Part shown: piece after piece, positions 1 through 15,679 of the stretch
Layout: every line of letters starts with the position of its first letter
Position numbering within the stretch: position 1 is the first letter of the stretch
DNA from: a virus
Taxonomy: Duplodnaviria > Heunggongvirae > Uroviricota > Caudoviricetes
Strand: one strand, 5' to 3'
IMG/VR virus record: IMGVR_UViG_2563366799_000007
DNA length: 15,679 nt
Program-made: the position numbers and the translations under genes
Notes under the pieces: generated by a model
The model's database searches: none
What the model was told of the DNA's origin: nothing
The model's input: only the letters and a program-made list of their open reading frames with translations

Positions 1-1284
1 TTACAGACTTCTGGAAGGTTGCGCAGCTCTTACAACACGCGGTTGATCTTCCGCAGCGTCTTCCAGCGCACTTAAATCACGGTCTTTCACCTCTGGCATT
101 TTCAGCGCAGAGATTAAACCAATCACTGAATATGCCATGATCATAATGGCGATCGGATACCAGGATTCCGTCATGGTGCAGAAAATACCCGCCAGGATAG
201 GACCAAAACCGGAAGCGATAAGACCACCAATTTCTTTAGAAATAGCCATCCGGGTAAAGCGGTTTTTACAGCCGAACATTTCTGCCATGGTAATGTTTTC
301 CAGAGCAAATAATCCCAGCACCGCACAGTTATGAATCACAATCAGTGCAACCATAATGGTGCTCGGGGCATAGCTTTTATCTACAATGATAGAAAGCATT
401 GGCCATGCCAGCACAATCGCGGAGGTATTCATAATAATATACGGGATCCGGCGACCAATTTTATCGGATAACCAACCAAGGAACGGAATGGTCATAAAGC
501 CGAGAATCGAACTGATCATCAATGCATCTGTTGGAATTGCTTTGTTAAACAATAACGTCTGCACTAAATAGCCTGCAAGGAAAGTCTGAATTAACCCGGA
601 GTTACCCGCCTGACCAAAACGCAGCCCTGTTGCCAGCCAGAAGGATTTGCTCTGGAACATGCTACCAGCAGGTGCAGGTTTTGCTGTCGGTTGGTTACTG
701 TCGTTAACCTTCTCAAAGACCGGGCTTTCTTTCAGATTCATACGCAACCAGATAGCAAAGACCATCACGACAACGCTCGCCAGGAACGGTATACGCCATC
801 CCCACGCCAGCAGTTCCTCTTTACTGAGAATGAAGAACATAAAGGCCCAGATTGCCGTTGCGCTCAAGGTTCCGCAGTTAGTTCCCATAGCCACAAATGA
901 GGAGATAATTCCGCGCTTACCTTTTGGCGCATATTCCGCCAGCATCGTACCGGCACCGGAAATTTCCGCACCTGCACCCAACCCCTGAATAATACGCAAC
1001 GTCACCAGCAAGATGGGTGCAAAAACACCAATCTGTGCATAGGTCGGTAACACACCAATTAAGGTGGTACAGATCCCCATCATGGTGATGGTAATAAAGA
1101 GCACTTTTTTACGCCCTATTCTGTCGCCCATTTTGCCGAAAATAAATGCTCCGACAATACGCGCCACATAACCTGCACCGTAGATTCCCATTGCCAGAAT
1201 TAACGCCATTGCCGTTGATGATTCAGGAAAAAATATTTCATGAAACACTAACGCTGCGCCGAGCGAATATAACTGGAAATCCAT
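1..1284 (-). CDS. ydfJ: MFS transporter (metabolite:H+ symporter family), 427 codons; probably the 3' portion of a gene split by prophage insertion
   Basis: Track ORF with 12-TM-like hydrophobic profile and MFS motifs (GKMGDRIGRKK, WGWRIPF). The ORF starts inside the region that aligns with the middle of TM1 of paralogues ShiA/ProP (DFxxY...FFP), and a TGA lies two codons upstream in frame. Confidence 0.85.
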   Translation of the reverse strand: MDFQLYSLGAALVFHEIFFPESSTAMALILAMGIYGAGYVARIVGAFIFGKMGDRIGRKKVLFITITMMGICTTLIGVLPTYAQIGVFAPILLVTLRIIQGLGAGAEISGAGTMLAEYAPKGKRGIISSFVAMGTNCGTLSATAIWAFMFFILSKEELLAWGWRIPFLASVVVMVFAIWLRMNLKESPVFEKVNDSNQPTAKPAPAGSMFQSKSFWLATGLRFGQAGNSGLIQTFLAGYLVQTLLFNKAIPTDALMISSILGFMTIPFLGWLSDKIGRRIPYIIMNTSAIVLAWPMLSIIVDKSYAPSTIMVALIVIHNCAVLGLFALENITMAEMFGCKNRFTRMAISKEIGGLIASGFGPILAGIFCTMTESWYPIAIMIMAYSVIGLISALKMPEVKDRDLSALEDAAEDQPRVVRAAQPSRSL

Positions 1285-1654
1285 AATTCACAGGTGTTTT
1301 TTCCCATCCTGTGGTTTCCTTGGCGTTTTCTAGGTTTTTTCAGATAGTTGCATTTTTTTAAAAGCATCCTAAGTTCGATCTCAGTGTCTATCTGGGGCCT
1401 ATTTCTGTCCCATATATGCCCCAAAAAACTCCCCAACAGATAAGTAGTTTTTTCATGGATTTACGCGTAAAATCAATAACGGCTGGAAATCATTCAATAC
1501 TCGCACTATCGAAAAATTTACCAGCCAACCGCAGCACGTTCTTGCATAAGGCGTGTCTGCGGTTTTTCAACTATTCAGATACATCACTCCCATCACATTC
1601 ATTCCTCCGCATCAAAGGCATATAGGCTATATCACCTTGATATTTTTCTTCTTC

Positions 1655-1846
1655 AGATAAAAATTGTTATCTATGTATACTTTTAAACCCAATCCGTGTA
1701 GAGTCTCTGCATAAGATAGTTTGCAGTTGCCACTTCAGATTGCGCCATAAACCGCCTGATTTTTGCCGCCACCTGTTAGCATTCCTGTATACCTGAAACG
1801 ACAATGTTTATCTACGAACTTTAAGAACACCCAAGATAAAAATTGT
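1655..1846. repeat. Two exact copies of the 13-mer AGATAAAAATTGT (1655-1667 and 1834-1846), each followed 3 nt later by CTAT, in the AT-rich region between the prophage junction and ydfK
   Basis: Read directly from the sequence; copies are 179 bp apart in the same orientation. Function unknown; possible protein-binding sites. Confidence 0.4.
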
Positions 1847-1886
1847 CAACTATATCATATATAACACATTACTAATTCGAGGCTAT

Positions 1887-2000
1887 ATGAACAGCATACT
1901 GATAATCACTTCTCTCCTTATCATATTCAGCATTTTTAGTCATGCCCTAATAAAATTAGGGATTGGCATATCCAATAACCCAGACAAAACCGATGTATAA
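1887..2000 (+). CDS. Candidate small membrane protein, 37 aa ([37 protein letters not shown])
   Basis: ATG at 1887 with GAGG 4 nt upstream; hydrophobic helix then polar tail. AT-rich context makes a chance ORF plausible. Confidence 0.2.
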
Positions 2001-2068
2001 GTCAACATATCCTGAATCAGACATACAATATCGCAATGAAAATCAATAATATTTTAAGGAATATCTTC

Positions 2069-2302
2069 ATGAAATCAAAAGACACCCTAAAGTGGTTCCC
2101 TGCGCAGCTTCCTGAAGTAAGAATTATCCTAGGGGATGCTGTAGTGGAAGTAGCAAAACAGGGAAGACCTATCAATACCAGAACATTGCTTGATTACATT
2201 GAAGGAAACATAAAGAAAAAATCATGGCTGGATAACAAAGAATTATTACAAACAGCGATATCAGTTCTTAAAGACAACCAAAATTTAAATGGTAAAATGT
2301 AA
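2069..2302 (+). CDS. ydfK: Qin-type prophage small protein YdfK (77 aa, cold-shock inducible in K-12 as I recall)
   Basis: Track ORF 2036-2302; the internal ATG at 2069 has AAGGA 9 nt upstream and gives the 77-aa product MKSKDTLKWFPAQLPEV... Confidence 0.8.
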   Translation: MKSKDTLKWFPAQLPEVRIILGDAVVEVAKQGRPINTRTLLDYIEGNIKKKSWLDNKELLQTAISVLKDNQNLNGKM

Positions 2303-2618
2303 TATAACAAACTTACTTTTTTATCATTTTTCCACTTTAACAACATTTTGCTCCACTTTTCCACGACCAAACAAATTGAAATCTGGTTAAAATAACACGC
2401 AACACTATTCTTCTTCCTTGAGTCTGCCCGGAACTCGAAAAACAAACCGAGTTAAAGCCATTTTTCACAAAATCGATTTTGGGTCTCACCAAAATTACGG
2501 GGTTGCATACGCATTCGTTTATTTTCGAACGTGTACATACAAATATGCACAAAAATAATCAAAATTATTTTCTGAGATGCATTATGATATGAACACCAAT
2601 TTCGTATAGAGTCTCACT

Positions 2619-3209
2619 ATGTCTCGAATTTTTGCTTACTGTCGGATATCAACGCTGGATCAGACCACCGAAAATCAACGCCGGGAAATCGAAAGTGCAG
2701 GTTTTAAAATCAAACCTCAGCAAATAATCGAAGAACACATTAGCAGCTCAGCAGCAACCAGTGAGCGTCCTGGTTTTAACCGGTTGCTTGCTCGCCTGAA
2801 ATGTGGTGATCAATTGATTGTGACAAAACTGGATCGCCTTGGTTGTAATGCAATGGATATCAGGAAAACAGTGGAACAACTGACCGAAACAGGTATCAGA
2901 GTGCATTGCTTAGCATTGGGGGGCATTGACCTGACCAGTCCAACAGGAAAAATGATGATGCACGTAATTTCAGCAGTCGCTGAATTTGAACGAGACCTTT
3001 TACTTGAACGCACTCATTCCGGGATAGTAAGAGCCCGCGGCGCAGGGAAACGTTTTGGTCGACCACCTGTGTTAAATGAAGAACAGAAACAGGTGGTATT
3101 CGAACGAATTAAGTCAGGTGTAAGTATAAGTGCCATTGCCCGGGAATTCAAAACCTCGCGGCAAACCATTTTAAGAGCCAAAGCAAAACTTCAGACACCT
3201 GACATATAA
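2619..3209 (+). CDS. pinQ: Serine recombinase / DNA invertase of the Gin/Hin/Pin family (196 aa)
   Basis: N-terminal catalytic motif YCRISTLDQ with the active-site serine, resolvase catalytic domain and C-terminal HTH ([20 protein letters not shown]). Confidence 0.93.
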
Positions 3210-3306
3210 AAAATAATCTCGGTGTGAGATGCTTTACGTCTTCCAAGCCCCCTTCCTTGCCGTAAATGGAAAGATACATCTAATTATAGAATTTATATGT
3301 TTTACC

Positions 3307-3882
3307 CTACGGCAGTGCTGGCCATTCAATATCCTGTGCAGTTGATGTATCAACACGGTTCAGCAACACCCGATACTTTTTCCAGGCTTCCAGCAATGAG
3401 GTTTCTTCCTCCGTTGCGATTTCCAGATCTACAGCATCCTGAAGTGGCGCTATATGCTCACTGGCTACCTGCATCAGGCTGTTTTTTGTTTCTTCCGCCT
3501 CCCGGATCCGGAACAGTTTTTCTGCTTCCGTATCCTTCACCCAGACTGTACCGTTCCACTTCTGAAACTCCCCTTCCGGCGATAACCAGGTAACATTTTC
3601 CGGTAACGGACCGAGTTCAGAAATAAATAACGCGTCGCCGGAAGCCACGTCATAAACCATTTTACCCCGATGATCTTCAACGAGATGCCACGATGACTCA
3701 TCACTGTTGAAAACAGCCACGAAGCCAGCCGGAATATCTGGCGGTGCAATATCGGTACTGTTTGCTGGCAGACCTGTATGAGGCGGAATATATGCATCAC
3801 CTTCACCAATAAATTCATTAGTTCCGGCCAGCAGATTATAAATTTTTATGGTCCGTGGTTGTTCACTCATTCTGAATGCCAT
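3307..3882 (-). CDS. tfaQ: Tail fibre assembly protein (191 aa)
   Basis: Full track ORF; its start ATG overlaps the stop of the upstream tail-fibre frame by one nucleotide (TAATG), the usual stf-tfa arrangement. Confidence 0.9.
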
Positions 3883-4105
3883 TATGCAAGCCTCACAATA
3901 TAGTTAAATGCGATGTTTTTGACGGTGTTTTCCGCGTTACCAGCAGCGTTAACGGTGATGGTGTGTCCATGTGAACCAATCGCAACGGAGTGCGTATGAG
4001 CACCAATACCCACAGTATGTGCGTGTGCACCTGCGCTTGCAGCAGTACCCGATACAGAGTGCGTATGAGCGCCTGCAGAAGAAGTGTTAACACTGTATTT
4101 AGAAT
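3882..4105 (-). pseudogene. stfQ: 3' fragment of a side tail fibre gene (about 70 codons, no start codon)
   Basis: Hand translation of the minus strand gives ...[74 protein letters not shown], the His-rich C-terminal repeat typical of lambdoid side tail fibres. The long track ORF reads this region in the wrong frame. Confidence 0.7.
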
Positions 4106-5272
4106 AACGGGCGCTGAATAATGCTCTTTCCGCTCTGCCATCACTTCAGCATCCGGACGTTCACCGATTTTCGCTTCCCACGTCTCACCGAGCGTGGTGT
4201 TCACGAAGGTTTTACGTTTTCCCGTATCCCCTTTCGTCTTCATCCAGTCTTTGACAATCTGCACCCAGGTGGTGAACGGGCTGTACGCCGTCCAGATGTG
4301 AAAGGTCACGCTGTCAGGCGGTTCAATCTCTTCACCGGATGACGAAAACCAGAGAATGCCATCACGGGTCCAGATCCCGGTCTTTTCGCAGATATAACGG
4401 GCATCAGTGAAGTCCAGCTCCTGCTGACGGATGACGCAGGCGTTATGCTCGCAGAGATAAAACACGCTGGAGGGGTCATCCGGCGTCCATTTGAGGCCAA
4501 ACGGCGTCTCTTTATCGCCAAATTTAAGGTACTGCTCCTCCCCGCAGTGCGGGCAGGCAACATGAAAACGCATAAAATGCGGGGATTCACTGGCTGCACG
4601 CTCAATCTGGCAGGTGCCTCTCACTTTGGGCGTGGAGCCACGGATGGACTTTGGCCAGACCGAGCCTTCAATACGTTTGTCGCCAAGGAACGTCGGAGAG
4701 CCTTCCTGTTCAATATCCTCATCAAAGGCAGCAAGTTCATCATAACCCGCCACATCCACCGACTTTTCACGGTAGTTTTTTGCCGCTTTACCGCCCAGGC
4801 ACCAGAAGCCACGACCATTGGAAAAACGCTTCATGGTGAGCGTGTTATCCCGGTGCTTTTTGCCATACCACGGAGCCAGCGCCAGCAGCGACGGAATATC
4901 GCGGATGGTCGGCTCAACGTGGGTTTTCATAAAGTTCTCGGCATCACCATCCGTCGGCAACCAGATAAGGGTGTTGCGCTGCTTATGCTCTATGAAGTAG
5001 GCATAAACACCCAGCAGCATTTTGGAATAACCAACACGGGCAGACTTCACCACATTCACCTCGCGGACGTAGTCACTGCCCATCGCATTCATGATGGCCC
5101 GCTGAAAGGGCAGTGTTTCCCAGCGCCCTTCCTGGTATGCGGATTCTTTCGGGAGATAGTAATTGGCATCCGCCCATTCAACGGCGGTCTGTGGCTCCGG
5201 CCGGAACAGTGAGCGAAGCCCGGCGCGGACAAAATGCCGCAGCCTGTTAACCTGACTGTTCGATATATTCAC
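4106..5272 (-). pseudogene. 5' fragment of a lambda gpA-type terminase large subunit (first ~389 codons); track ORF 3893-5272 continues out of frame into the tail fibre remnant
   Basis: Translation starts MNISNSQVNRLRHFVRAGLRSLFRPEPQTAVEWADANYYLPKE... and matches lambda gpA as I recall it up to ...[11 protein letters not shown]; after that the track ORF gives low-complexity text ([20 protein letters not shown]...). Confidence 0.88.
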
Positions 5273-5792
5273 TCAGCAACCCCGGTATCAGTTCATCCAG
5301 CGCGGCTGCTTTGTTCATGGCTTTGATGATATCCCGTTTCAGGAAATCAACATGTCGGTTTTCCAGTTCCGGAAAACGCCGCTGCACCGACAGGGGGATC
5401 CCGTCGAGAATACTGGCAATTTCACCTGCGATCCGCGACAGCACGAAAGTACAGAATGCGGTTTCCACCACTTCAGCGGAGTCTCTGGCATTCTTCAGTT
5501 CCTGTGCGTCGGCCTACGCACGCGTAAGTCGATGGCGTTCGTACTCAATAGTCCCTGGCTGGAGATCTGCCTCGCTGGCCTGCCGCAGTTCTTCAACTTC
5601 CCGGCGCAGCTTTTCGTTCTCAATTTCAGCATCCCTTTCGGCATACCATCTTATAACGGCGGCAGAGTCATAAAGCACCTCATTACCCTTGCCACCGCCT
5701 CGCAGAACGGGCATTCCCTGTTCCTGCCAGTTCTGAATGGTACGGATACTCGCACCGAAAATGTCAGCCAGCTGCTTTTTGTTGACTTCCAT
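5247..5792 (-). pseudogene. nohQ: Lambda Nu1-type terminase small subunit, interrupted by an in-frame TAG at 5514-5516
   Basis: Track ORFs 5514-5792 (MEVNKKQLADIFGASIRTIQNWQEQGMPVLRGGGKG..., winged-HTH) and 5247-5471 (VETAFCTFVLSRIAGEIA...) are in the same frame and together span a full Nu1. The stop sits where lambda has CAG, so it is a single C-to-T change (RA*ADAQELKNARD). Its end overlaps the gpA start as in lambda. Confidence 0.85.
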
Positions 5793-5794
5793 TG

Positions 5795-6060
5795 TTCATT
5801 CCACGGCCAAAAACAGAGAAAGGAAACGACAGAGGCCCAAAAGCTCGTTTTCAGCACCTGTCGTTTCCTTTCTTTTCAGGGGGTATTTTAAATAAAAACA
5901 TTAAGTTACAACGAAGAAGAACGGAAACGCCTTAAACCGGAAAATTTTCATAAATAGCGAAAACCCGCGAGGTCGCCGCCCCGTAACCTGTCGGATCGCC
6001 GGAAAGGACCCGCAAAATGATAATAATTATCATCTGCATGTCACAACGTGCATCTACGCC
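5795..6060 (-). other. Phage cohesive-end site (cosQ-cosN-cosB) of lambda type
   Basis: Minus strand reads ...CGACAGGTTACG GGGCGGCGACCT CGCGGGTTTTCGCTATTTATGAAAATTTTCCGG..., essentially the lambda right-end/left-end junction, about 180 bp upstream of the Nu1 start. Inverted 15-mers GAAAGGAAACGACAG (5818-5832) and CTGTCGTTTCCTTTC (5858-5872) resemble Nu1-binding R elements. Confidence 0.85.
5970..5981 (-). other. cosN 12-nt cohesive-end sequence (GGGCGGCGACCT on the minus strand)
   Basis: Exact match to the lambda cohesive-end sequence as I recall it. Confidence 0.8.
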
Positions 6061-6180
6061 ATCAAACCACGTCAAATAATCAATTATGACGCAGATATCG
6101 TATTAATTGATCTGCATCAACTTAACGTAAAAACAACTTCAGACAATACAAATCAGCGACACTGAATACGGGACAACCTC

Positions 6181-6414
6181 ATGTCAACGAAGAACAGAAC
6201 CCGCAGAACAACAACCCGCAACATCCGCTTTCCTAACCAAATGATTGAACAAATTAACATCGCTCTTGAGCAAAAAGGGTCCGGGAATTTCTCAGCCTGG
6301 GTCATTGAAGCCTGCCGCCGGAGACTGTGCTCAGAAAAAAGAGTTTCTTCTGAAGCAAACAAAGAAAAGAGTGACATTACTGAATTGCTCAGAAAACAGG
6401 TCAGACCAGATTGA
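6181..6414 (+). CDS. ynfO: Small basic protein, 77 aa, with a predicted ribbon-helix-helix DNA-binding fold
   Basis: Track ORF; RNIRFPNQMIEQINIALEQKG...NFSAWVIEACRRRL fits a beta-strand/helix/helix pattern. Fold assignment is inference. Confidence 0.6.
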   Translation: MSTKNRTRRTTTRNIRFPNQMIEQINIALEQKGSGNFSAWVIEACRRRLCSEKRVSSEANKEKSDITELLRKQVRPD

Positions 6415-6471
6415 AGCAATTTAGATAATCGTGCAGACTACGCCCCCTCATATCACATGGAAGGTTTATCT

Positions 6472-6882
6472 ATGGATCAGGTAGTCATTTTTAAACAAAT
6501 ATTTGATAAAGTTCGAAACGATTTAAACTATCAATGGTTTTATTCTGAGCTAAAACGTCACAATGTCTCACATTACATTTACTATTTAGCCACAGAGAAT
6601 GTTCATATTGTATTAAAAAATGATAATACAGTGTTATTAAAGGGCCTAAAAAACATTGTGTCTGTCAAATTTTCAAAGGATAGGCATCTTATAGAAACGA
6701 CCTCTAATAAGCTGAAATCCAGAGAGATCACATTTCAGGAATACAGAAGAAACCTTGCTAAAGCAGGAGTTTTTCGGTGGGTTACAAATATCCACGAACA
6801 AAAAAGATATTACTATACCTTTGATAATTCATTACTATTTACTGAAAGCATCCAGAAAACTACACAGATCTTACCACGCTAA
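6472..6882 (+). CDS. ydfO: Prophage hypothetical protein (136 aa from the ATG at 6472; track ORF starts at 6457)
   Basis: Track ORF; the second ATG has GGAAGG about 7 nt upstream, the first has no ribosome-binding site. Confidence 0.6.
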
Positions 6883-6890
6883 ACCATAAC

Positions 6891-6919
6891 GTCCGGCTTC
6901 TCTCACTCCTGAGCCGGAC
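6891..6919 (+). terminator. 8-bp stem-loop (GTCCGGCT...AGCCGGAC) just after ydfO; weak T tract, so uncertain as an intrinsic terminator
   Basis: Inverted repeat read from the sequence, 9 nt after the ydfO stop. Confidence 0.3.
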
Positions 6920-6982
6920 TGCATTGGTTTAATAAAAACCATCAACAATTGTGATTTAGATATTCGGAACCATTCAAATATA

Positions 6983-7004
6983 ACAAAACCCCGTAAAAAC
7001 GAGG
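6983..7004 (-). terminator. Putative intrinsic terminator downstream of gnsB
   Basis: Minus-strand hairpin CCUCG-UUUUUA-CGGGG followed by UUUUGUUAUAUUU, about 30 nt past the gnsB stop. Confidence 0.45.
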
Positions 7005-7033
7005 TTTATGGATAAATTTTATTATTGAATACA

Positions 7034-7207
7034 TCAGATTAAATTAATCTTGACATCATAGCTTTCAAGACCCGTCATTTTTTCCCGTGCGGTAAACTGA
7101 ATACTGGTAACTTCTTTCCCGGTCTTTTTCTTAAGTTCAATAATTTTTTTTGTTATATATTCAGAAATATCTGCTTCTGCTTTTGTTTTTAAGTTTTCAA
7201 TATTCAT
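7034..7207 (-). CDS. gnsB: GnsB-type small protein (57 aa); too short for the ORF track
   Basis: Hand translation gives MNIENLKTKAEADISEYITKKIIELKKKTGKEVTSIQFTAREKMTGLESYDVKINLI; AGAGGA lies upstream of the start. Confidence 0.85.
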   Translation of the reverse strand: MNIENLKTKAEADISEYITKKIIELKKKTGKEVTSIQFTAREKMTGLESYDVKINLI

Positions 7208-7378
7208 CATTTCCTCTTTTAGTCTGTTATGACTTTCCAGTTACACAGTAAGTCGATTATATGGTGCAAACGTGTAAAAGATAAGATGAAACATCGCAAT
7301 AATCAACATACGATAGTCTAAATTTTACACAAACAGACAAAGAGAATTTTCCTGAATTATCAATGCAATAGCATCAAA

Positions 7379-7609
7379 TCAACTCAAGAGCCTTATTGCT
7401 GCTTCCAGAATTTCTTCTGAAGTAACATGTCGATCCGCGGCTACATAAATGACTTTATGATCTCCGGTCAGAGATGGAAACCCTGCGGCCATTACAGTAA
7501 GGTGTGTTTTTTCGCCATTTGGATATTCACGCATGATGGTGTTAACTCCAGTCATCGCTGGCACTACCACTGCTGGTTCAGAGTTAAAAAAAACTATGAT
7601 TTTTTTCAT
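7379..7609 (-). CDS. ynfN: Prophage small protein YnfN-like (76 aa from MKKIIVFF...; track ORF runs to 7651)
   Basis: Track ORF; start choice is uncertain because a hairpin at 7660-7673 lies inside the longer version. Confidence 0.6.
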   Translation of the reverse strand: MKKIIVFFNSEPAVVVPAMTGVNTIMREYPNGEKTHLTVMAAGFPSLTGDHKVIYVAADRHVTSEEILEAAIRLLS

Positions 7610-7652
7610 GATGTTACCGTAGTATGTGAGTATCCATCGAATAGACACCAAG

Positions 7653-7673
7653 CCAAAAAGCTCCCGAAGGAGC
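7653..7673 (-). terminator. GC hairpin GCUCC-UUCG-GGAGC followed by UUUUUGG on the minus strand
   Basis: Read from the sequence; lies between cspI and ynfN. Confidence 0.5.
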
Positions 7674-7880
7674 CTTCATTTTCACTTTTTTAAATCCAAC
7701 GACAGACGGCTGGCATTTAAGTATTGTGAAATATTATCAAATGTAATCATCATTGATTTACAAAAGATACATTTTGCCCCGAAAGGATTCATGTCAGAAA
7801 CATCAAAAGATGATGTTCTATACTGGGAACCATGACAACACGGGCATCTAAAGTGAATATGGTTTGTAATATTGTCTACC

Positions 7881-8093
7881 TCAAAGCGCCACTACATGAA
7901 CAGCGGCAGGACCTTTAGGTCCGTTCTCAATACCAAATTCAACTTCCTGATTCTCAGTTAATGTTTTGAAATCGTTGCTCTGAATTGCTGAGAAATGGAC
8001 AAACACATCTTTGCTGCCATCTTTCGGCGTGATGAAACCAAAACCTTTTTCAGGGTTAAACCATTTTACTAAACCAGTCATTTTGTTAGACAT
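7881..8093 (-). CDS. cspI: CspA-family cold shock protein (70 aa)
   Basis: Cold-shock domain with RNP1 motif KGFGFI and RNP2 VFVHF. Confidence 0.95.
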
Positions 8094-8455
8094 AATTATT
8101 ACCTTTTGAAGAAATTAGCCCTTGGGCAGAATGGTCCGAAAAAAAATATCAGAGAGAAAAACCAACAAGGAAATCTCAAGAGGTACAAATAATAAAATTA
8201 TAACAATGACTGCTTCAGATAAATTTGTAACAAACCAGAACACCATTAACGCATGATTAACCACCCATAGCAAGGATTACTTTTGTAAAGAAAAACACAG
8301 CAATGAAAGAATAGCTTTATTTATTAATAAAACGTGTCATTCTGATTAAGACCTTTTATCTTACCCTTAAGATTTCAGGAATTTTGGCTCATGGAAGAGT
8401 CCTTTTTATTTAAATTTTACATTCCGCGATGTAAATGTTCCGATTTAATATTACC

Positions 8456-9483
<1,028 letters not shown>

Positions 9484-9794
9484 AGATATTTATGATGAGG
9501 ACGCTCGTGCTTATTGGCAGGATTTTCAATCTTAAAGGAGTACTGATGCTGCAGATAAGACTCAACTTTTCTGACAATTTTTCTGCTACTTCCAGGAAGA
9601 CTTGCCGGACGCTCATTCTGGCTGCTGCCTCATAAAACTCCAGCGTAGCTCCTTCAACACGGTCCATGGCGACATCCAGGCCAAAAATTTCACCGTCAAA
9701 GCGTTCTTTGTCCTGTAAGGCTACAGTTACCGTAACTTTATTCTCAAAATTACGGACTCCTTTCACAACCAGTTCATAGCCTTGAGTCATTGGA

Positions 9795-10010
9795 TTATTC
9801 TCCTCTCGCAGCCTTACGCCTGTCTTCTTTAATCTTGAAATAAAGATTTGTCAGATACGTCAGCAGGCCAAAAACCAGGCTACCCAGCACACCGATTGCA
9901 GCCCACTGTGACGGAGTTACTTTATCGAGTAACTGCAATGCCCAGAAACCAGCATTACCCGCCGATGTGCCATAGGCAACACCTGTTGTTAACTTATCCA
10001 TTGATTTCAT
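9795..10010 (-). CDS. essQ: Class II holin / pinholin of phage-21 S type (71 aa) with dual-start motif M-K-S-M
   Basis: [71 protein letters not shown]: two TM segments and a charged C-terminus; Met1 and Met4 fit the holin/antiholin start pair. The track ORF (to 10085) has an unsupported N-terminal extension. Confidence 0.9.
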
Positions 10011-10229
10011 ATCCTCACCCCGATGTACACGGATGGTGCAATATGTTTGAAAAGATCGGAGTCTACGGGGTAGTTTTGACAGCACACGCTGTTCTCAACG
10101 GCGCTAAAGAAACATACACATTAAAAATGTGAGTAATTATTTTGAAAGAAAGTCATATATAAAATAATAATACGAGAAATGTTTTCATATTTAGTGTACT
10201 GTATACGGCCATTTATACAGGAAAAGCCT

Positions 10230-10400
10230 ATGTCAGAACGTAAAGACTCAAAATCACGCCGTAATTATCTCGTTAAATGTTCCTGCCCAAACTGCACCCA
10301 AGAGTCAGAACACAGTTTTTCAAGAGTACAAAAAGGTGCCCTTTTGATCTGCCCTCATTGCAACAAAGTATTCCAGACAAATCTTAAAGCTGTAGCCTGA
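10230..10400 (+). CDS. Small zinc-ribbon protein, 56 aa, two CxxC pairs (CPNC...CPHC); may correspond to the K-12 small protein I recall as YnfU
   Basis: Internal ATG of track ORF 10179-10400 with AGGA 7 nt upstream; sits on the opposite strand inside the lysis/late region. Confidence 0.5.
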   Translation: MSERKDSKSRRNYLVKCSCPNCTQESEHSFSRVQKGALLICPHCNKVFQTNLKAVA

Positions 10401-10454
10401 TTGATTTTATTAGTAACAAGTATTTTTTATATTTTAATAATATATTTAAAGCAG

Positions 10455-10481
10455 ATAATAAAAAACCCGCCTGAGCGGGTT
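10455..10481 (-). terminator. Intrinsic terminator, mainly minus strand: AACCCGC-loop-GCGGGTT followed by UUUUUAUUAU
   Basis: Read from the sequence; about 280 nt past the cspB stop. Confidence 0.6.
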
Positions 10482-10763
10482 TGAGATTGTGGTGCTTTTT
10501 GTGGGAGTCATCCACTTACGCACTTTGTTTTGCCATGCCAGCAGTTAGCTTCTGCTGTAAAACTATTCATGCAGCAAACCTGCACTTCACCACAATGGTT
10601 AGCATACTTTTCCTGATTAAGATTTTGCCAAATATGCTGGCCATTGTTTCATGTATTGGACCTCCTTAATTTTTATTAAAGAAATCCAATATTCACTACT
10701 CTGTCCGTATCTCTACTCAGGCATCAGCCTTCTTCGTTATCGTATACAGACGAGCGATGAATT

Positions 10764-10979
10764 TTAATCAGTAATGATGACATTTGCTGCTGCAGGACCT
10801 TTAGCACCACTCTCTATAGAGAAGGTAACCTTTTGACCTTCAAATAAGGTTCGATAATTATCATTCTGAATCGCAGAAAAATGCACAAACACATCTTTAC
10901 TACCATCAACAGGAGAAATAAAGCCGAAACCTTTATCAGCGTTAAACCATTTTACTAAACCAGTCATTTTATTTGACAT
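10764..10979 (-). CDS. cspB: CspA-family cold shock protein (71 aa)
   Basis: Cold-shock domain with KGFGFI and VFVHF motifs. Confidence 0.95.
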
Positions 10980-11140
10980 TCTACATTCCTTAACTTGAGC
11001 CTTTCGGCATAAATGGTTTGCATAACAGAAACGACTTCGTACTTAATTGGAGAGACTCAAAGAAGGAATAAGTGAATAACACCTGAAATGAGAACTGCTT
11101 TAGTAAACTACTTCGTATATCGTCTGTTCTTCAAACCGAC
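10980..11140 (-). promoter_or_regulatory. Long (~160 nt) cspB 5' leader with a cold-box-like element at its 5' end
   Basis: Minus strand near 11121-11139 reads GGTTTGAAGAACAGAC, like the cspA cold box as I recall it; a GCCGAAAGGC element lies just upstream of the start, also as in cspA. Confidence 0.5.
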
Positions 11141-11279
11141 GCAATCATTAACGCATAGTTGAACATATGAAGCAATGTTTATTTTAGACATCCAGCCATC
11201 TTCAACCCCATCAAAAAACTATAGCTTTCTTCAGGAACGTGTGTATAGTGCGCCAAGTTATCAGTATTAAGGAATTTTT

Positions 11280-11492
11280 TTGTCCCGTAAAATGACAGGA
11301 ATTGTCAAAACCTTTGACGGCAAAAGCGGCAAGGGTCTTATCACCCCATCCGATGGTCGTATCGATGTCCAGCTCCATGTTTCAGCGCTCAATCTCCGCG
11401 ATGCAGAAGAAATTACCACCGGATTACGCGTGGAATTTTGCCGGATAAATGGTCTGCGTGGCCCTTCAGCTGCCAATGTTTACCTTTCATGA
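11280..11492 (+). CDS. cspF: CspA-family paralogue (70 aa); apparent TTG start
   Basis: Track ORF; AAGGA 7 nt upstream of the TTG; cold-shock-domain-like sequence with degenerate RNP motifs. Confidence 0.88.
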
Positions 11493-11546
11493 GCTATATT
11501 AAAGCTTTAATTTCAGGCCCCATCGGATCACACATGGAGAGTTTTT

Positions 11547-11636
11547 ATGAATAACCCCGTCTGTCTTGATGACTGGTTGATTGGCTTTAAAAGCTTATGC
11601 TGTACTTTGGCCGTAATAGCTCTGCTAATAATATAA
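11547..11636 (+). CDS. Candidate small hydrophobic protein, 29 aa ([29 protein letters not shown])
   Basis: ATG at 11547 with GGAGA 6 nt upstream, 54 nt downstream of the cspF stop. Speculative. Confidence 0.25.
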
Positions 11637-11781
11637 TAAGCAGACTCATTGTGTTTAGGGACATTGTACTGGAAGAAAACATTTTAAACATCAGGCAAAT
11701 AACCAAGTCACCAGCTAAATAATAAGTTAACAGACATGAGTCCCGGGATGAGATTCAACATTACCATTGCCCCATTTAAAG

Positions 11782-11806
11782 CACAAAACCCGCTCATCAG
11801 CGGGTT
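11782..11806 (-). terminator. Candidate tR'-like terminator downstream of the late promoter
   Basis: Minus-strand hairpin AAACCCGCU-GAUG-AGCGGGUUU followed by UGUGCUUU, about 45-65 nt downstream of the predicted late start site. Confidence 0.55.
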
Positions 11807-11853
11807 TTCTACTTTTTCTTAACGTCGGGTATACAAAGCCCATCGTTGAAAAA

Positions 11854-11882
11854 ATTTTATCCATATTTTTTGAAAAATGCAA
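11854..11882 (-). promoter_or_regulatory. Candidate late promoter (pR'-like) immediately downstream of the Q gene
   Basis: Minus strand TTGCAT-17 nt-TAAAAT, 30 bp past the quuQ stop. Confidence 0.5.
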
Positions 11883-11913
11883 ACATCATGTCGCCATCTT
11901 CAGCAAAAATCAT

Positions 11914-12666
11914 TTATCTCGTCACCTTCCTCAATTGCGCTTCCGCGTATGCTTCTTCCTGCCAGCACTTTGTTACCAGTTTACCAATGACGTCCGCATA
12001 CCCCTTATACCACTGATAATCGGTCAGGTCTGGTACCAGCTTCTGGACATGACGTCGTGCCAGCGTGGTCGGTAAACGACTAAACCGGTTTCCATTACAA
12101 CGCCCACAAATCTTATATACCGGTACGCCATGAAACCGGGTTCTTTTTTCATCCAGAACAATCCCTTTACCCTTACACCCTCTGCACGCTGTGCTGGCTT
12201 CGCCCTTACCATGGCAATGCTGACATAGTTCCTTCACCCATTCTTCCTTGATTACAGATTCCCCGCGTCTGTAGTGTTTCACCACTTCGCGCAATACATT
12301 ATAAAATCCCGTACCTGAACAATGCTCACAGCGAGCCTTACTTGCCGCAGACCTGGAGTAATCAGCAAAGGCAAAACTCACGAGGTAAGGAATAATCTGT
12401 AACCGGATTTCTTCACTCAATTTGTTCAATGTCGGGTTATCCAGTGCCATCGCGTAATTTAGCAGGCCTTCAATCGCAAACTGAGGGTCCTGAACACCAA
12501 CTTTTGCCAGAAATAAGGCCAACCCAAGTGGTGCTTTCGACTGCACCATCCCCTGCGCTGCCATTACATCCGTAATTGTTAAACAACCGGTGCCTGTCGC
12601 TGGAGCGTCATCGCTCAATTTTGGAGATTTTGGGGAGTAATATTTTGGTAAGGCTTCAAGGTTCAT
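11914..12666 (-). CDS. quuQ: Late-gene antiterminator Q (250 aa)
   Basis: Track ORF trimmed to the ATG at 12666 (GGAG 7 nt upstream); Cys/His zinc-binding motifs (CEHCSGTG, CQHCHGKG, CRGCKGKG, CGRCNG). Confidence 0.9.
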   Translation of the reverse strand: MNLEALPKYYSPKSPKLSDDAPATGTGCLTITDVMAAQGMVQSKAPLGLALFLAKVGVQDPQFAIEGLLNYAMALDNPTLNKLSEEIRLQIIPYLVSFAFADYSRSAASKARCEHCSGTGFYNVLREVVKHYRRGESVIKEEWVKELCQHCHGKGEASTACRGCKGKGIVLDEKRTRFHGVPVYKICGRCNGNRFSRLPTTLARRHVQKLVPDLTDYQWYKGYADVIGKLVTKCWQEEAYAEAQLRKVTR

Positions 12667-12679
12667 GCTCGTTCTCCAC

Positions 12680-13729
12680 TTACGCCAGTACGCCAATTGC
12701 CAGCGCGCGATCGATAAAACGAAATATCAGCTCCAGTTGGGAGCCATACTTCTCTTCAAATGCCACTGTATCCGTATGCAGCTCGTTGTGATGCTTTCTG
12801 CACAAAGGCAACACAAAGAGATCATGTGCTTTTGTTCCCATTCCGCCCTGCCCGTGACCAATCAGATGATGCGGATCGTCGGCTGGCATACCGCAGCAAG
12901 CACACGGCTGTGTCTTAACCCAGCGTGTGTATTTCTCCTTAACCCACCGGTGACGTTTAGGCAGCTTCATGAAAGATTCCGGAGACTCTGGATCAACGGT
13001 GATGCTTACCACCGTCTTTTCCTGTGATGGGTTTTGTTGCTGGTGGGCGTGAGGCAACGGTGCAAGATTTTTTGTGCGCTGTTTCAATATGCTGGTGGCG
13101 GTCTGCTCTCCCGGTACGATGTCGCTTTCGCGGTACACCGAGCAGATTTTTTCCGCTGGTAATCCCAGCGAGCGACGTAATACCGCTTCCGGTAGCGCGT
13201 CCGCCAGCTGATTGCGGACCGCCCACCAGGATAATTCAGCCAGAGATAATTCACGCTCCTGCGTACCGCTTATTGCGTGACCGATGACGTCAATCATCCA
13301 TGCTGACAGGTTTTGATGAGCAAGTTGCTCGAGTGATTCGGATGTCTGGTCACGCAGCTGGTTGTCGCAGTGCCAGCACAACACCATTGCGCCGGTACCA
13401 TATCGGTGAATAACGGTTTCGCTGTGATGATAATCGCCGTGTGGCCACTGGCAGGATTTAATATGGCGCAACAGCCAGTCAGACAATGCACCAGCACCAC
13501 CAGCAGCACGAATTACCCGTGTGTTACTGAAAAACGGCAGCAATGTTTTGTCTTCCACCAGCGGCTGGCGAACGGCAGGAACGACCCCGGACGGCAGATT
13601 ACGCATGCTTTTCGGTTCCGGCTCCACCAGTACCCGGGTATTGTGGAATACCGGCATGGATTCACGGCCCGGCTTAACGACCACCAGCCCGAGTTCCGGT
13701 ACCAGAACAGGTCGAAGTAATACCCGCAC
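12680..13729 (-). CDS. ydfU: Prophage protein YdfU (349 aa) with a C-terminal HNH-like Cys/His motif
   Basis: Track ORF; C-terminus CACCGMPADDPHHLIGHGQGG...LCRKHHNELH; apparent GTG start directly after the rem stop. Confidence 0.85.
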   Translation of the reverse strand: MRVLLRPVLVPELGLVVVKPGRESMPVFHNTRVLVEPEPKSMRNLPSGVVPAVRQPLVEDKTLLPFFSNTRVIRAAGGAGALSDWLLRHIKSCQWPHGDYHHSETVIHRYGTGAMVLCWHCDNQLRDQTSESLEQLAHQNLSAWMIDVIGHAISGTQERELSLAELSWWAVRNQLADALPEAVLRRSLGLPAEKICSVYRESDIVPGEQTATSILKQRTKNLAPLPHAHQQQNPSQEKTVVSITVDPESPESFMKLPKRHRWVKEKYTRWVKTQPCACCGMPADDPHHLIGHGQGGMGTKAHDLFVLPLCRKHHNELHTDTVAFEEKYGSQLELIFRFIDRALAIGVLA

Positions 13730-13730
13730 G

Positions 13731-14120
13731 TTACCTCCAGAGGCGTTGCTGGAATGTACGGGACGGACGCGGTGGGCGTTCGGAGTAAGGCAATCTGACT
13801 GAGATTATCCAGTGACGGTAGTCGAGGCTAAGGGCTTTTTTAACCTCGTATCCGCGCCTGCGGTAACACTGAATTATCCATTCAGCCTGCTCTTCAGTGC
13901 ATGGTGGATGCTGGAACCAGTCCGATTTGAATGCATGAAAACGCCGTCCGCACCTGCTGGCAAAGACGGCAGAATCATCAGAATTGTGTAATTTGGTATC
14001 GTGCGCCATCGGTTGTCTCTGCTGGCGCAGCAGGTGCCAGTTGTTCAGGCTGGCGTATAAAGTATAAATAAACTGGTTCCAGTGTAAAGCCCCTACATTA
14101 ATGGAATAAAAGTCAAACAA
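13731..14120 (-). CDS. rem: Prophage protein Rem-like; start uncertain (TTG at 14120 or ATG at 14009)
   Basis: Track ORF; stop abuts the ydfU start, suggesting translational coupling. Confidence 0.6.
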   Translation of the reverse strand: MFDFYSINVGALHWNQFIYTLYASLNNWHLLRQQRQPMAHDTKLHNSDDSAVFASRCGRRFHAFKSDWFQHPPCTEEQAEWIIQCYRRRGYEVKKALSLDYRHWIISVRLPYSERPPRPSRTFQQRLWR

Positions 14121-14370
14121 CAGATTGTTGGGATAAACACAACGCTTATTATTAAAAGCGATTAGATAAATTAAATTTTAATGTTATGCAATTTTACCAG
14201 ATCACCATAACATCTCGTTTGAAACCACCAAAACAACAACCATATCAATATTGATTATGTTAAAGTGAGTAAATATGGAAAACAACAAATCTGCACATTA
14301 CGCTCCTTTTTTATCTGTGATACTTTTTGTTTTATGCTGTGTGTGGGCATTATTTTTATAAAAATATTTA

Positions 14371-14462
14371 CAGATAAAATAAACCCGCCGAAGCGGGTTA
14401 AGTGCGGGTGCATTGAGGATGCCTGACACATCAGAGGTGGCGAGGGATTTCTCCCTCGCCTG
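14371..14462 (-). terminator. hok mRNA 3' end: 9-bp hairpin (14439-14460), fold-back element (14404-14418) and terminator (14382-14399 plus U tract)
   Basis: Terminator on the minus strand is AACCCGC-UUCG-GCGGGUU followed by UAUUUUAU. The segment at 14404-14418 is complementary, with a single-nucleotide bulge, to the predicted mRNA 5' end at 14781-14794. Confidence 0.55.
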
Positions 14463-14467
14463 GTCTC

Positions 14468-14623
14468 TTACTCCTCAGGTTCGTAAGCTGTGAAGACAGC
14501 GACCTCCGTCTGGCCGGTTCGGATTCGTACCTCGCAGAGGTCTTTCCTCGTTACCAGTGCCGTCACTATGACGGTTAAACAGATGACGATCAGGGCGATT
14601 AACATCGCCTTTTGCTGCTTCAT
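14468..14623 (-). CDS. hokD: Hok-family type I toxin (51 aa), closest by recall to HokD/RelF and Gef
   Basis: MKQQKAMLIALIVICLTVIVTALVTRKDLCEVRIRTGQTEVAVFTAYEPEE. The track ORF extends 19 codons upstream in frame to an ATG at 14680 (a Mok-like position). Confidence 0.9.
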   Translation of the reverse strand: MKQQKAMLIALIVICLTVIVTALVTRKDLCEVRIRTGQTEVAVFTAYEPEE

Positions 14624-14827
14624 AGCCTGCTTCTCCTTGCCTTTCGGCACGTAAGAGGCTAACCTACATGTGTCTAGCATGAAATTGGCCTCAGATTAAT
14701 GTTAAGCGTCTTGCAGGACGCGTAATGTTAACTGGGGCTTTTCTCTATCTGCCTTTGGTGTTCATGCCTGAGGCAGATAGCCTCAAGCACCCGCAGCAAT
14801 TCTACTTAACTCACGTCACCTCGCCAA
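14624..14827 (-). promoter_or_regulatory. hok leader and promoter: candidate -35 TTGGCG (14822-14827) and -10 TAGAAT (14799-14804), predicted start near 14793
   Basis: Promoter hexamers with 17-bp spacing read from the sequence; the predicted 5' end coincides with the segment complementary to the 3' fold-back element, giving a transcript of about 420 nt. Confidence 0.5.
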
Positions 14828-14834
14828 TATAAAA

Positions 14835-14924
14835 TCAATCAGAAAGGCGATCCGTAAGAACAACAGCAAGACAATAAATTGCCATTACAGCCGCAATAGC
14901 TAGCGCACATTTGAGAACCAGCAC
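14835..14924 (-). CDS. Candidate 29-aa membrane peptide (MLVLKCALAIAAVMAIYCLAVVLTDRLSD); possible type-I-toxin-like small protein
   Basis: GTG start with a perfect AGGAGG 5 nt upstream (14930-14935); candidate promoter TTGAAT-17 nt-CATATT at 14962-14990; ends 8 nt before the hok -35. Overlaps, in another frame, the Cys-rich 98-aa track ORF. Confidence 0.3.
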   Translation of the reverse strand: MLVLKCALAIAAVMAIYCLAVVLTDRLSD

Positions 14925-15238
14925 GACAACCTCCTGTATTGGACGTACACCAGTCCTGATAAATATGAGGCTGTCTCATCATTGATTCAATATAACTATT
15001 GGGTATAGTTTCTGTGATTTTGTTCTGTAGAAATGGAACACAACAACCAGTCTCCACCAGCACTTCTTTAAATACGCCAAGTCCGACGCAAGCTAACCTT
15101 CTAGTCCGCTTTGAGCGAACTGTGGAAGCTCGCAAATGTTGTTACATCTGATGAAGGCATTACTCAAAGGAGGGGATAGTAGTCAACGTGGAGCAGGCCA
15201 TGTTAGTATTTTTATACAATTCGACTAAGGGAAAAACA

Positions 15239-15679
15239 ATGAGGCTTTACATAATAGGAAATGGATTTGACATGCGTCATGGCTTACCAACAGGATACAA
15301 GCACTTTAAGTCGTATGTAGAAAAAAATGACCAAGATCTATATGACGCGATAGAAGAATACATTCCTGCTGGGGACGAGTGGAATGAGTTAGAAAATGCT
15401 TTAGGTGAAATTGATTATGAGCTTATCCTTCAAAACAGTGAGATATTTTTGGCTTCATACAATACCGATGATTGGAGCGATGCTTATCATCACGATTACC
15501 AATATGAAGTAAATAAAATCACACAAATGCTGTCAGCTCGTTTGAAGGAGCAATTCGCTGATTGGGTTAAGGAAGGTGCGAATAAGCGGGGAAATTCTTC
15601 TCGGCTGACTCAGTCATTTCATTTCTTCATGTTTGAGCCGATTTTTTCTCCCGTAAATGCCTTGAATCAGCCTATTTAG
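15239..15679 (+). CDS. AbiH-like abortive-infection protein, N-terminal domain only (147 aa from the ATG at 15239; track ORF starts at GTG 15188)
   Basis: Starts MRLYIIGNGFDMRHGLPTGYKHF, which I recognise as the N-terminal signature of the AbiH family; AAGGGA 7 nt upstream. Stops at the window edge at less than half the usual family length. Confidence 0.55.
   Translation: MRLYIIGNGFDMRHGLPTGYKHFKSYVEKNDQDLYDAIEEYIPAGDEWNELENALGEIDYELILQNSEIFLASYNTDDWSDAYHHDYQYEVNKITQMLSARLKEQFADWVKEGANKRGNSSRLTQSFHFFMFEPIFSPVNALNQPI

Follow-up and report, generated by a model that had tools for sequence, protein, structure and literature searches.

Known hok/sok systems

The archetype of the hok/sok family is the parB locus of plasmid R1, for whose hok mRNA nascent, full-length and truncated conformations have been described (PMC9841398). 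A phage-borne relative, hokW/mokW/sokW, is known from the Stx2 phages 933W (AF125520) and Sp5 (VT2-Sakai). HokW is toxic, and sokW counteracts it, partly via RNase III and Hfq (Takada et al. 2021, PMC8621323); moreover, hokW-sokW speeds lysis and doubles the release of Sp5 after mitomycin C (PMC8621323). HokD is likewise reported to be toxic on expression (bioRxiv 10.1101/2025.08.07.668861). In E. coli K-12, hokD is co-transcribed with relBE (PMC3598666), and a passage of PMC12214031, citing Pedersen and Gerdes 1999, describes it as inactivated by 'genomic rearrangements'. According to a passage in a survey that cites earlier work, the chromosomal hokA, hokB and hokC mediate no post-segregational killing (bioRxiv 10.1101/2025.08.07.668861).

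Here we describe a hok locus in IMG/VR record IMGVR_UViG_2563366799_000007, the whole 15,679-nt stretch of which is called the window below. The segment from 14827 to 14372 on the (-) strand is very probably a hok/mok/sok type I toxin-antitoxin cassette that is complete and belongs to the HokD/HokW clade. A Qin-like lambdoid prophage carries it as an accessory gene in the early-right region, between the replication genes and the Q antiterminator. Cassettes of this type are already known, having been named and studied as hokW/sokW, and the locus is thus an ordinary hok/sok of an E. coli lambda-like prophage.

Genes and transcript of the cassette

Read from 14827 to 14372 on the (-) strand, the order of elements is promoter, leader, mok, hok, 3' hairpin, fbi and terminator. 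The genes and the signals that delimit their transcript are as follows:

14799-14827, (-): putative sigma-70-like hok promoter, with -35 TTGGCG at 14827-14822, a 17-nt spacer and -10 TAGAAT at 14804-14799 (consensus scan, 9 of 12 matches)
14372-14792, (-): predicted full-length hok mRNA of about 415-420 nt, from a +1 near 14792 to the T-run of the terminator
14468-14680, (-): mok ORF, 70 aa, ATG at 14680, in frame with hok; Shine-Dalgarno sequence (SD) GAGG at 14692-14689, 8 nt upstream
14468-14623, (-): hok ORF, 51 aa, Pfam HOK_GEF; SD AAGGAG at 14638-14633
14382-14399, (-): intrinsic terminator stem-loop AACCCGCUUCGGCGGGUU with a U-rich tail to about 14372 (terminator scan)

The original prediction of a hok-type locus complete with promoter, leader, Mok start and fold-back pairing is borne out by the Rfam match, the scans and the folds; the interval proposed for it (14371-14827) brackets the hok unit exactly, and every element that it listed lies where it had been placed, on the (-) strand. 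Over 417 nt the locus is 94.3% identical to phage 933W, in which hokW, mokW and sokW are annotated, and the DNA from the -10 element to fbi is 94.3% identical to both 933W and VT2-Sakai.

The Hok protein matches Pfam HOK_GEF (PF01848) with E = 3e-23 and 81.6 bits (cutoff 22). It is identical to K-12 HokD, the same protein record (WP_000813254.1) standing for K-12 and for strain 503025, and shares 92% identity with HokW and 43% with R1-type Hok. The in-frame upstream ATG that had been noticed at the Mok position, at 14680, opens a 70-aa ORF with the same layout as the annotated mokW of 933W, and PHROG 251, 'MokW-like host killing', is matched with E = 7.7e-33. The in-frame arrangement of mok and hok was considered as a diagnostic trait and rejected, as homologues differ in the frame of mok with respect to that of hok. 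Within hok, the Tyr47 codon lies in a UACG motif (GCUUACGAA; 14482-14485, (-)), and the UACGAA stretch that includes this codon is nearly invariant across 36 aligned homologues; the local hairpin predicted at this site is weak. Low-level A-to-I editing that changes a conserved Tyr to Cys has been reported for hokD mRNA (PMC12214031).

Both a promoter of its own and an intrinsic terminator are predicted for the hok mRNA by consensus scans, the former with the promoter-like hexamers (TTGGCG and TAGAAT, 17-nt spacer) that had been pointed out before. The scan gave 3 promoter-like matches in a 750-nt region, the hok promoter among them, where 0.9 were expected. The leader, estimated beforehand at roughly 170 nt, measures 169 nt from the +1 predicted near 14792 to the ATG of hok at 14623; counted to the end of this ATG, its length is 172 nt, compared with 171 nt in the R1-type plasmid locus. 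It is clearly related to known hok leaders, since it matches Rfam RF01794 over the full model (positions 1-157) with 119.9 bits (gathering score 59) and E = 2.3e-27, and the match begins at 14792, which is the predicted +1. A leader profile seeded with the leader of the window and an R1-type leader likewise recovered full-length leaders in most of 80 related loci, which came from a scan of one genome per species. The RF01794 match extends over 14618-14792 (-), i.e., over the sense strand of the hok mRNA from tac through the hok start. Thus, this Rfam family, though named 'sok antitoxin', in fact describes the hok leader, and automated annotation from such a match would put 'sok' on the wrong strand.

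The cassette is closely preceded, on the strand of hok, by a 29-aa ORF with a strong SD (14924-14835), and on this ground it might be argued that hok is expressed mainly by read-through from upstream, as in K-12, and not from its own promoter. This is very improbable. The next sizeable upstream gene, which belongs to the AbiH family and begins at 15188, is on the opposite strand, and a terminator-like hairpin is found at 14900-14881. Furthermore, the predicted promoter, with its 17-nt spacer, ends exactly 7 nt 5' of the conserved mRNA 5' end, and the conserved pairing between tac and fbi (see below) needs a free and exact 5' end. Transcription of hok from its own promoter is therefore the reading followed here.

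Pairing of the mRNA ends and predicted fold states

The elements that would govern the folding of the hok mRNA were placed as follows:

14780-14792, (-): tac (translational activator element) GGGUGCUUGAGGC, the mRNA 5' end, partner of fbi in the fold of the full-length RNA and of ucb in that of the truncated RNA
14764-14790, (-): metastable 5' hairpin of the nascent transcript, nt 3-29 (fold of the first 30-50 nt, -19.6 kcal/mol)
14732-14740, (-): ucb (anti-SD box) AAGCCCCAG, predicted to pair across the mok SD region when the RNA is full-length and with tac when it is truncated
14695-14732, (-): leader hairpin of the truncated mRNA, nt 61-98 (truncated folds and Rfam consensus), within the stretch complementary to the Sok hairpin
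14651-14662, (-): dcb (downstream complementary box) UUAGCCUCUUAC, whose core GCCUC is the partner of the mok SD (GAGGC), both in truncated folds and in the consensus structure of Rfam
14439-14460, (-): 3' UTR hairpin GGCGAGGGAGAAAUCCCUCGCC, present in all folds
14404-14418, (-): fbi (fold-back inhibitory element) CCUCAAUGCACCCGC, pairing with tac

The complementarity that had been noticed between a 3' element at 14404-14418 and the predicted 5' end at 14781-14794 amounts to 14 pairs with one bulged U, formed by GCGGGUGCUUGAGG (14794-14781) and the fbi sequence (14418-14404). Its own template strand excepted, the best partner of the 5' 13-mer in the whole window is this 3' element. In a per-locus duplex search, most of 60 distinct homologues show the pairing 45-58 nt past the stop codon; these loci belong to Escherichia, Shigella, Kluyvera, Photorhabdus, Pantoea, Erwinia, Enterobacter and other genera; the complementarity of the 5' and 3' ends is thus conserved in homologues. 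The tac element is nearly invariant in 36 non-redundant homologues. Nonetheless, the tac/fbi core differs by clade, being GGGUGC/GCACCC in HokD/W, GGGCGC/GCGCCC in Photorhabdus, Pantoea and Erwinia, and GGCGC/GCGCC in R1-type loci, and the alignment of 36 non-redundant mRNAs contains a compensatory pair that is C:G in 19 sequences and U:A in 11. In the same alignment, the core helix is 89.8% paired, and the tac/fbi structure as a whole is 76.9% paired, compared with 43-50% when the 3' partners are slid by 1-3 columns. The distal half of the helix is 63.8% paired in the MAFFT alignment of these full-length mRNAs, in which R1-type and HokD-type sequences are out of register at this place, and the per-locus duplex search is the better measure for it.

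Among dinucleotide-shuffled 3' UTRs, 12 of 2000 gave an equally stable tac/fbi duplex, which is moderately significant and, taken alone, a weak test. The energy comparison discriminates weakly because the 3' UTR is G+C-rich, and it is therefore conservation and covariation that carry the argument for the tac/fbi pairing. These shuffles, together with the fact that short hexamer matches are common, could be taken to mean that hok is a lone ORF and that chance alone produced the promoter hexamers and the complementarity of the two ends. There is next to no probability left for such an explanation, which is refuted by the full-length Rfam match (E = 2.3e-27), by a complementarity whose distance from the stop codon is conserved in different genera, by its compensatory change, and by a predicted fold switch that behaves as expected. 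The pairing of tac and fbi is accordingly regarded as a genuine feature of this mRNA family.

Among the loci without the expected partner is a K-12-like hokC copy, the E. coli ECDA1023 locus at a hokC-like position (L022), in which fbi was not found at the expected site of the 3' UTR. The 3' UTR of this locus is interrupted by unrelated sequence (CATAAGCGCTAACTTAAGGG...), which we take to resemble an end of IS186, matching the published inactivation of hokC. The loss of fbi in this locus is consistent with the inactivation by insertion elements reported in the literature.

All fold states of the hok mRNA discussed here are predictions. When the transcript of about 420 nt expected from the original prediction was folded, its 5' and 3' ends were found paired; the 415-nt RNA has a minimum free energy (MFE) of -178.2 kcal/mol (z = -9.0), and none of 100 shuffled sequences was as good. 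The MFE fold of the full-length RNA is closed by the tac/fbi pairing, and the ucb box covers the mok SD region. By contrast, RNAs ending at nt 361-372, just upstream of fbi, are predicted to flip to a fold with tac/ucb and SD/dcb pairings, whereas an RNA ending at nt 376 is predicted to be closed, like the full-length RNA. In the truncated fold, GGG-GCUU pairs with AAGCCCC (tac/ucb), nt 61-98 form a hairpin, and GAGGC pairs with GCCUC; ucb is also the 3' arm of the first helix in the Rfam consensus. In the nascent transcript, the predicted 5' hairpin hides tac and is displaced once nt 53-59 have been made. These three predicted fold states correspond to the nascent, full-length and truncated states of the R1 hok mRNA. 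One pair of the 3' UTR hairpin at 14439-14460 is A:U in the window, G:C in 933W and G:U in K-12, and by analogy with R1 (PMC9841398) this hairpin likely protects the 3' end of the processed mRNA.

The Sok antisense RNA

The original prediction raised the possibility of an antisense RNA and of a Sok-like promoter and terminator on the plus strand. Indeed, a predicted gene homologous to sokW, with a putative promoter of its own and an end in UUUU, can be placed there:

14637-14665, (+): putative Sok promoter, with -35 TTGCCT at 14637-14642, a 17-nt spacer and -10 TAACCT at 14660-14665 (placed by homology to sokW and R1)
14672-14742, (+): predicted Sok RNA of about 71 nt (mapped from the sokW misc_RNA of AF125520)

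The predicted Sok begins with a single-stranded 5' tail of 15 nt, which is complementary to the region of the mok start; a long hairpin and UUUU follow, and the fold of the RNA has an energy of -28.7 kcal/mol (z = -5.1). In a generic sigma-70 scan of the 750-nt region, the Sok promoter stayed below the threshold, TAACCT being only a 3/6 match to the consensus. The 51 bases from 14625 to 14675, which extend from 12 nt upstream of the -35 element to Sok +4, are the same as in 933W except for the last two. The primer YO-421, which was used for the promoter-less sokW mutant, replaces exactly the -10 element of sokW that is the counterpart of 14660-14665 (PMC8621323). In genomes labelled only 'hokD', Sok (14672-14742, (+)) and mok usually go unannotated.

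Between the predicted Sok and SokW there are seven differences, six of which fall in the 5' 16 nt (14672-14687, (+)). Among five close relatives, variation reaches its maxima at the target of the Sok tail (mRNA nt 101-125), at hairpin loops and at the 3' UTR hairpin, and it is low in most regulatory elements. Changes in the Sok tail could reflect selection for orthogonality, by which co-resident hok/sok copies would not silence or de-repress each other; this suggestion is tentative and, on balance, rather doubtful. If it were true, each prophage would carry a privately addressed killer, which would be a refinement of known biology and not a new kind of system.

Distribution and genomic context

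The 173-nt leader is present, at a coverage of at least 80%, in 4260 of 5426 complete E. coli genomes, in which it occupies a median of 2 and a maximum of 10 places per genome, mostly on the chromosome and in some cases on plasmids. The relE-hokD junction of K-12, on the other hand, was found in 1177 of these genomes, and the complete state is thus commoner than the K-12 junction. The intact cassette is the norm in E. coli prophages, and it is K-12 hokD that is atypical. The interest attached to the locus by the original prediction was therefore too high, because the intact state is common and has already been named.

Sequence completeness is no guarantee of a post-segregational killing phenotype, and the cassette may be intact in sequence and still be physiologically silent, a hitch-hiking relic that is little transcribed or never releases Hok. 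This is unlikely, given that all regulatory elements are intact and that variation among close relatives is low in most of them, that the near-identical hokW-sokW acts as a toxin-antitoxin pair and aids phage release after mitomycin C (PMC8621323), and that the cassette is kept in so large a share of E. coli genomes, often in several copies.

In the phage genomes HannyBb, Tritos and mEp460, the cassette is found at the same relative place, i.e., 3' of the replication genes and ahead of a 92-aa ORF, a DUF968/HNH gene and Q. The window is of mosaic make-up: several strains have Qin-type prophages that share 98.4% identity with positions 1-14026, and on the hok/AbiH side positions 14300-14900 are 100% identical to E. 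coli 503025, which also has an AbiH-family gene upstream. Of the complete E. coli genomes in the collection, none spans the whole window in one place; the best one covers 1-14026. The stretch of about 14026-14380 holds the breakpoint of the mosaic, which lies near 14026, and an A+T-rich spacer that separates the hok terminator from the 92-aa ORF.

The AbiH-family abortive-infection gene (15188-15679, (+); Pfam PF14253, E = 8.5e-28) is cut by the end of the window. It is divergent from hok, so that a phage-defence gene adjoins a toxin-antitoxin cassette, and in strain 503025 it is followed by a hypothetical gene of 463 aa. The 29-aa hydrophobic ORF mentioned above (14835-14924, (-); MLVLKCALAIAAVMAIYCLAVVLTDRLSD) lies directly 5' of the hok promoter and has a GTG start with GGAGG 6 nt upstream. 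No match to it was found in Pfam or PHROG. Most of this ORF lies in DNA (14813-14900) that is about 97% conserved in many E. coli and in HannyBb, Tritos and mEp460; in Escherichia ruysiae the frame is open, with three synonymous and three non-synonymous (conservative) codon changes, and in HannyBb it is not annotated on this strand. Homology to the transmembrane segment of Hok was considered and rejected, the tblastn matches (E = 0.06-0.6 with composition correction off) being judged to reflect hydrophobic composition. The ORF may encode a small membrane protein that annotation has missed, or it may be no gene.

Elsewhere on the (-) strand of the window, a comparison with Rfam gave IS009 (226 bits) and, with 115 and 159 bits, two thermoregulator leaders of the cspA type, the matches lying at 3341-3539, 7854-8239 and 10748-11140. 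They fit the cold-shock gene paralogues of Qin-type prophages.

The truncated hokD of E. coli K-12

As stated in the original prediction, hokD of K-12 is the third gene of relB-relE-hokD and has no leader, the gene order being relB-relE-hokD-rem-ydfU, with relE ending 71 nt upstream of hokD. The relBE-hokD (relBEF) arrangement is absent from the window, where the leader and sok are present instead: a tblastn search of the window with K-12 RelB, RelE and Rem found none of them, the sole match being spurious (E = 8), which agrees with the previous remark that no RelB or RelE ORF stands upstream of hok. From 14637, which is just 5' of the SD of hok, homology to K-12 extends through the terminator. 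Over the hok coding sequence, 3' UTR, fbi and terminator, the two are 98.4% identical, whereas the promoter, tac, ucb, mok start, dcb and sok, all of which are found in the window, are missing from K-12, and relBE takes their place. The downstream neighbours are the same in both, namely the 92-aa ORF and ydfU/DUF968; however, K-12 carries rem downstream of hokD, and the spacer of the window is without it.

The fbi element of K-12 is retained as an orphan, for no stretch of the relBE-hokD RNA upstream of it pairs with it more stably than -11.8 kcal/mol. Truncation of a once-complete cassette is therefore the best explanation. It had been proposed that the locus might represent an ancestral or alternative state; in agreement with this and with the literature, K-12 keeps fbi and the terminator without a tac partner. 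To judge from the sequences, the window thus holds the intact form and K-12 hokD is a truncated, derived state. A strain with this prophage could conveniently serve, next to K-12, as a natural comparison in studies of a Qin-borne hok/sok on induction.

As loci L029, L033, L008 and L013 show, the relB-relE-hokD arrangement extends beyond E. coli and Shigella to a Kluyvera sp. and to 'Enterobacteriaceae bacterium G50', with RelB and RelE identities of 95-100%.

Proposed mechanism

From plasmid R1 hok/sok and Sp5 hokW-sokW, we infer how the cassette may be transcribed and processed, how Sok may act and what biological role may follow; the sequence and the predicted folds fit every step. The hok mRNA would be made from its own promoter, and the nascent 5' hairpin would hide tac. 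The finished 415-nt RNA would be locked by the tac/fbi pairing, with ucb lying over the ribosome-binding site of mok, and would therefore be neither translated nor bound by Sok. Slow trimming from the 3' end would then remove fbi, whereupon tac would pair with ucb and the mok SD would enter a hairpin with dcb, a conformation in which the R1 mRNA can be translated and is accessible to Sok. In a quiet resident prophage, the unstable 71-nt Sok would pair with the mok region via its 5' tail, block the translation of mok and of the translationally coupled hok, and target the duplex to RNase III. Once the supply of Sok ceases, Hok would be made and the inner membrane depolarised. Likely triggers are prophage loss, transcription shut-off and SOS induction, the last of which has been shown for sokW.

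Comparison with known systems

The comparison with characterised hok/sok loci, which had been proposed as a check, covered the R1 type and 933W. The closest relative is hokW/mokW/sokW of 933W and Sp5 (AF125520), which has the same mok frame, leader structure and sok promoter region, and in both cases the cassette resides on a lambdoid phage or prophage. The -10 element of hok and all sequence downstream of it are common to the hokW locus up to the end of fbi, whereas the sequence upstream of the -10 element differs, so that 933W has a different -35 element. The loci also part at their 3' ends: in the window, the intrinsic terminator stands right after fbi, as in K-12 hokD, whereas 933W diverges at this point and its hokW locus does not share this terminator. 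Furthermore, the cassette of the window lies in the nin/Q region beside ydfU, whereas that of 933W is near the right end of the genome.

The R1 locus shows the same order of elements, i.e., tac, ucb, mok SD, dcb, hok, fbi and terminator; its closed and open folds (PMC9841398) match those predicted for the window, and sequence comparison places its Sok promoter at the same position with the same 17-nt spacer. The two differ in the tac/fbi core, which is GGCGC/GCGCC in R1 and GGGUGC/GCACCC in the window, and in their location, R1 hok/sok being carried by a plasmid and the present cassette by a prophage; plasmid stabilisation has been shown for R1 only. The leaders of hokC/sokC (gef) and of the other E. 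coli hok paralogues belong to the same family and follow the same tac/fbi logic, and in hokC-like chromosomal loci (L028, L025 and L026; about 80-83% Hok identity) fbi is found 47-52 nt past the stop codon. Nonetheless, these are different paralogues at non-prophage sites. The anatomy predicted for the cassette of the window involves no departure from either the R1 or the hokW model.
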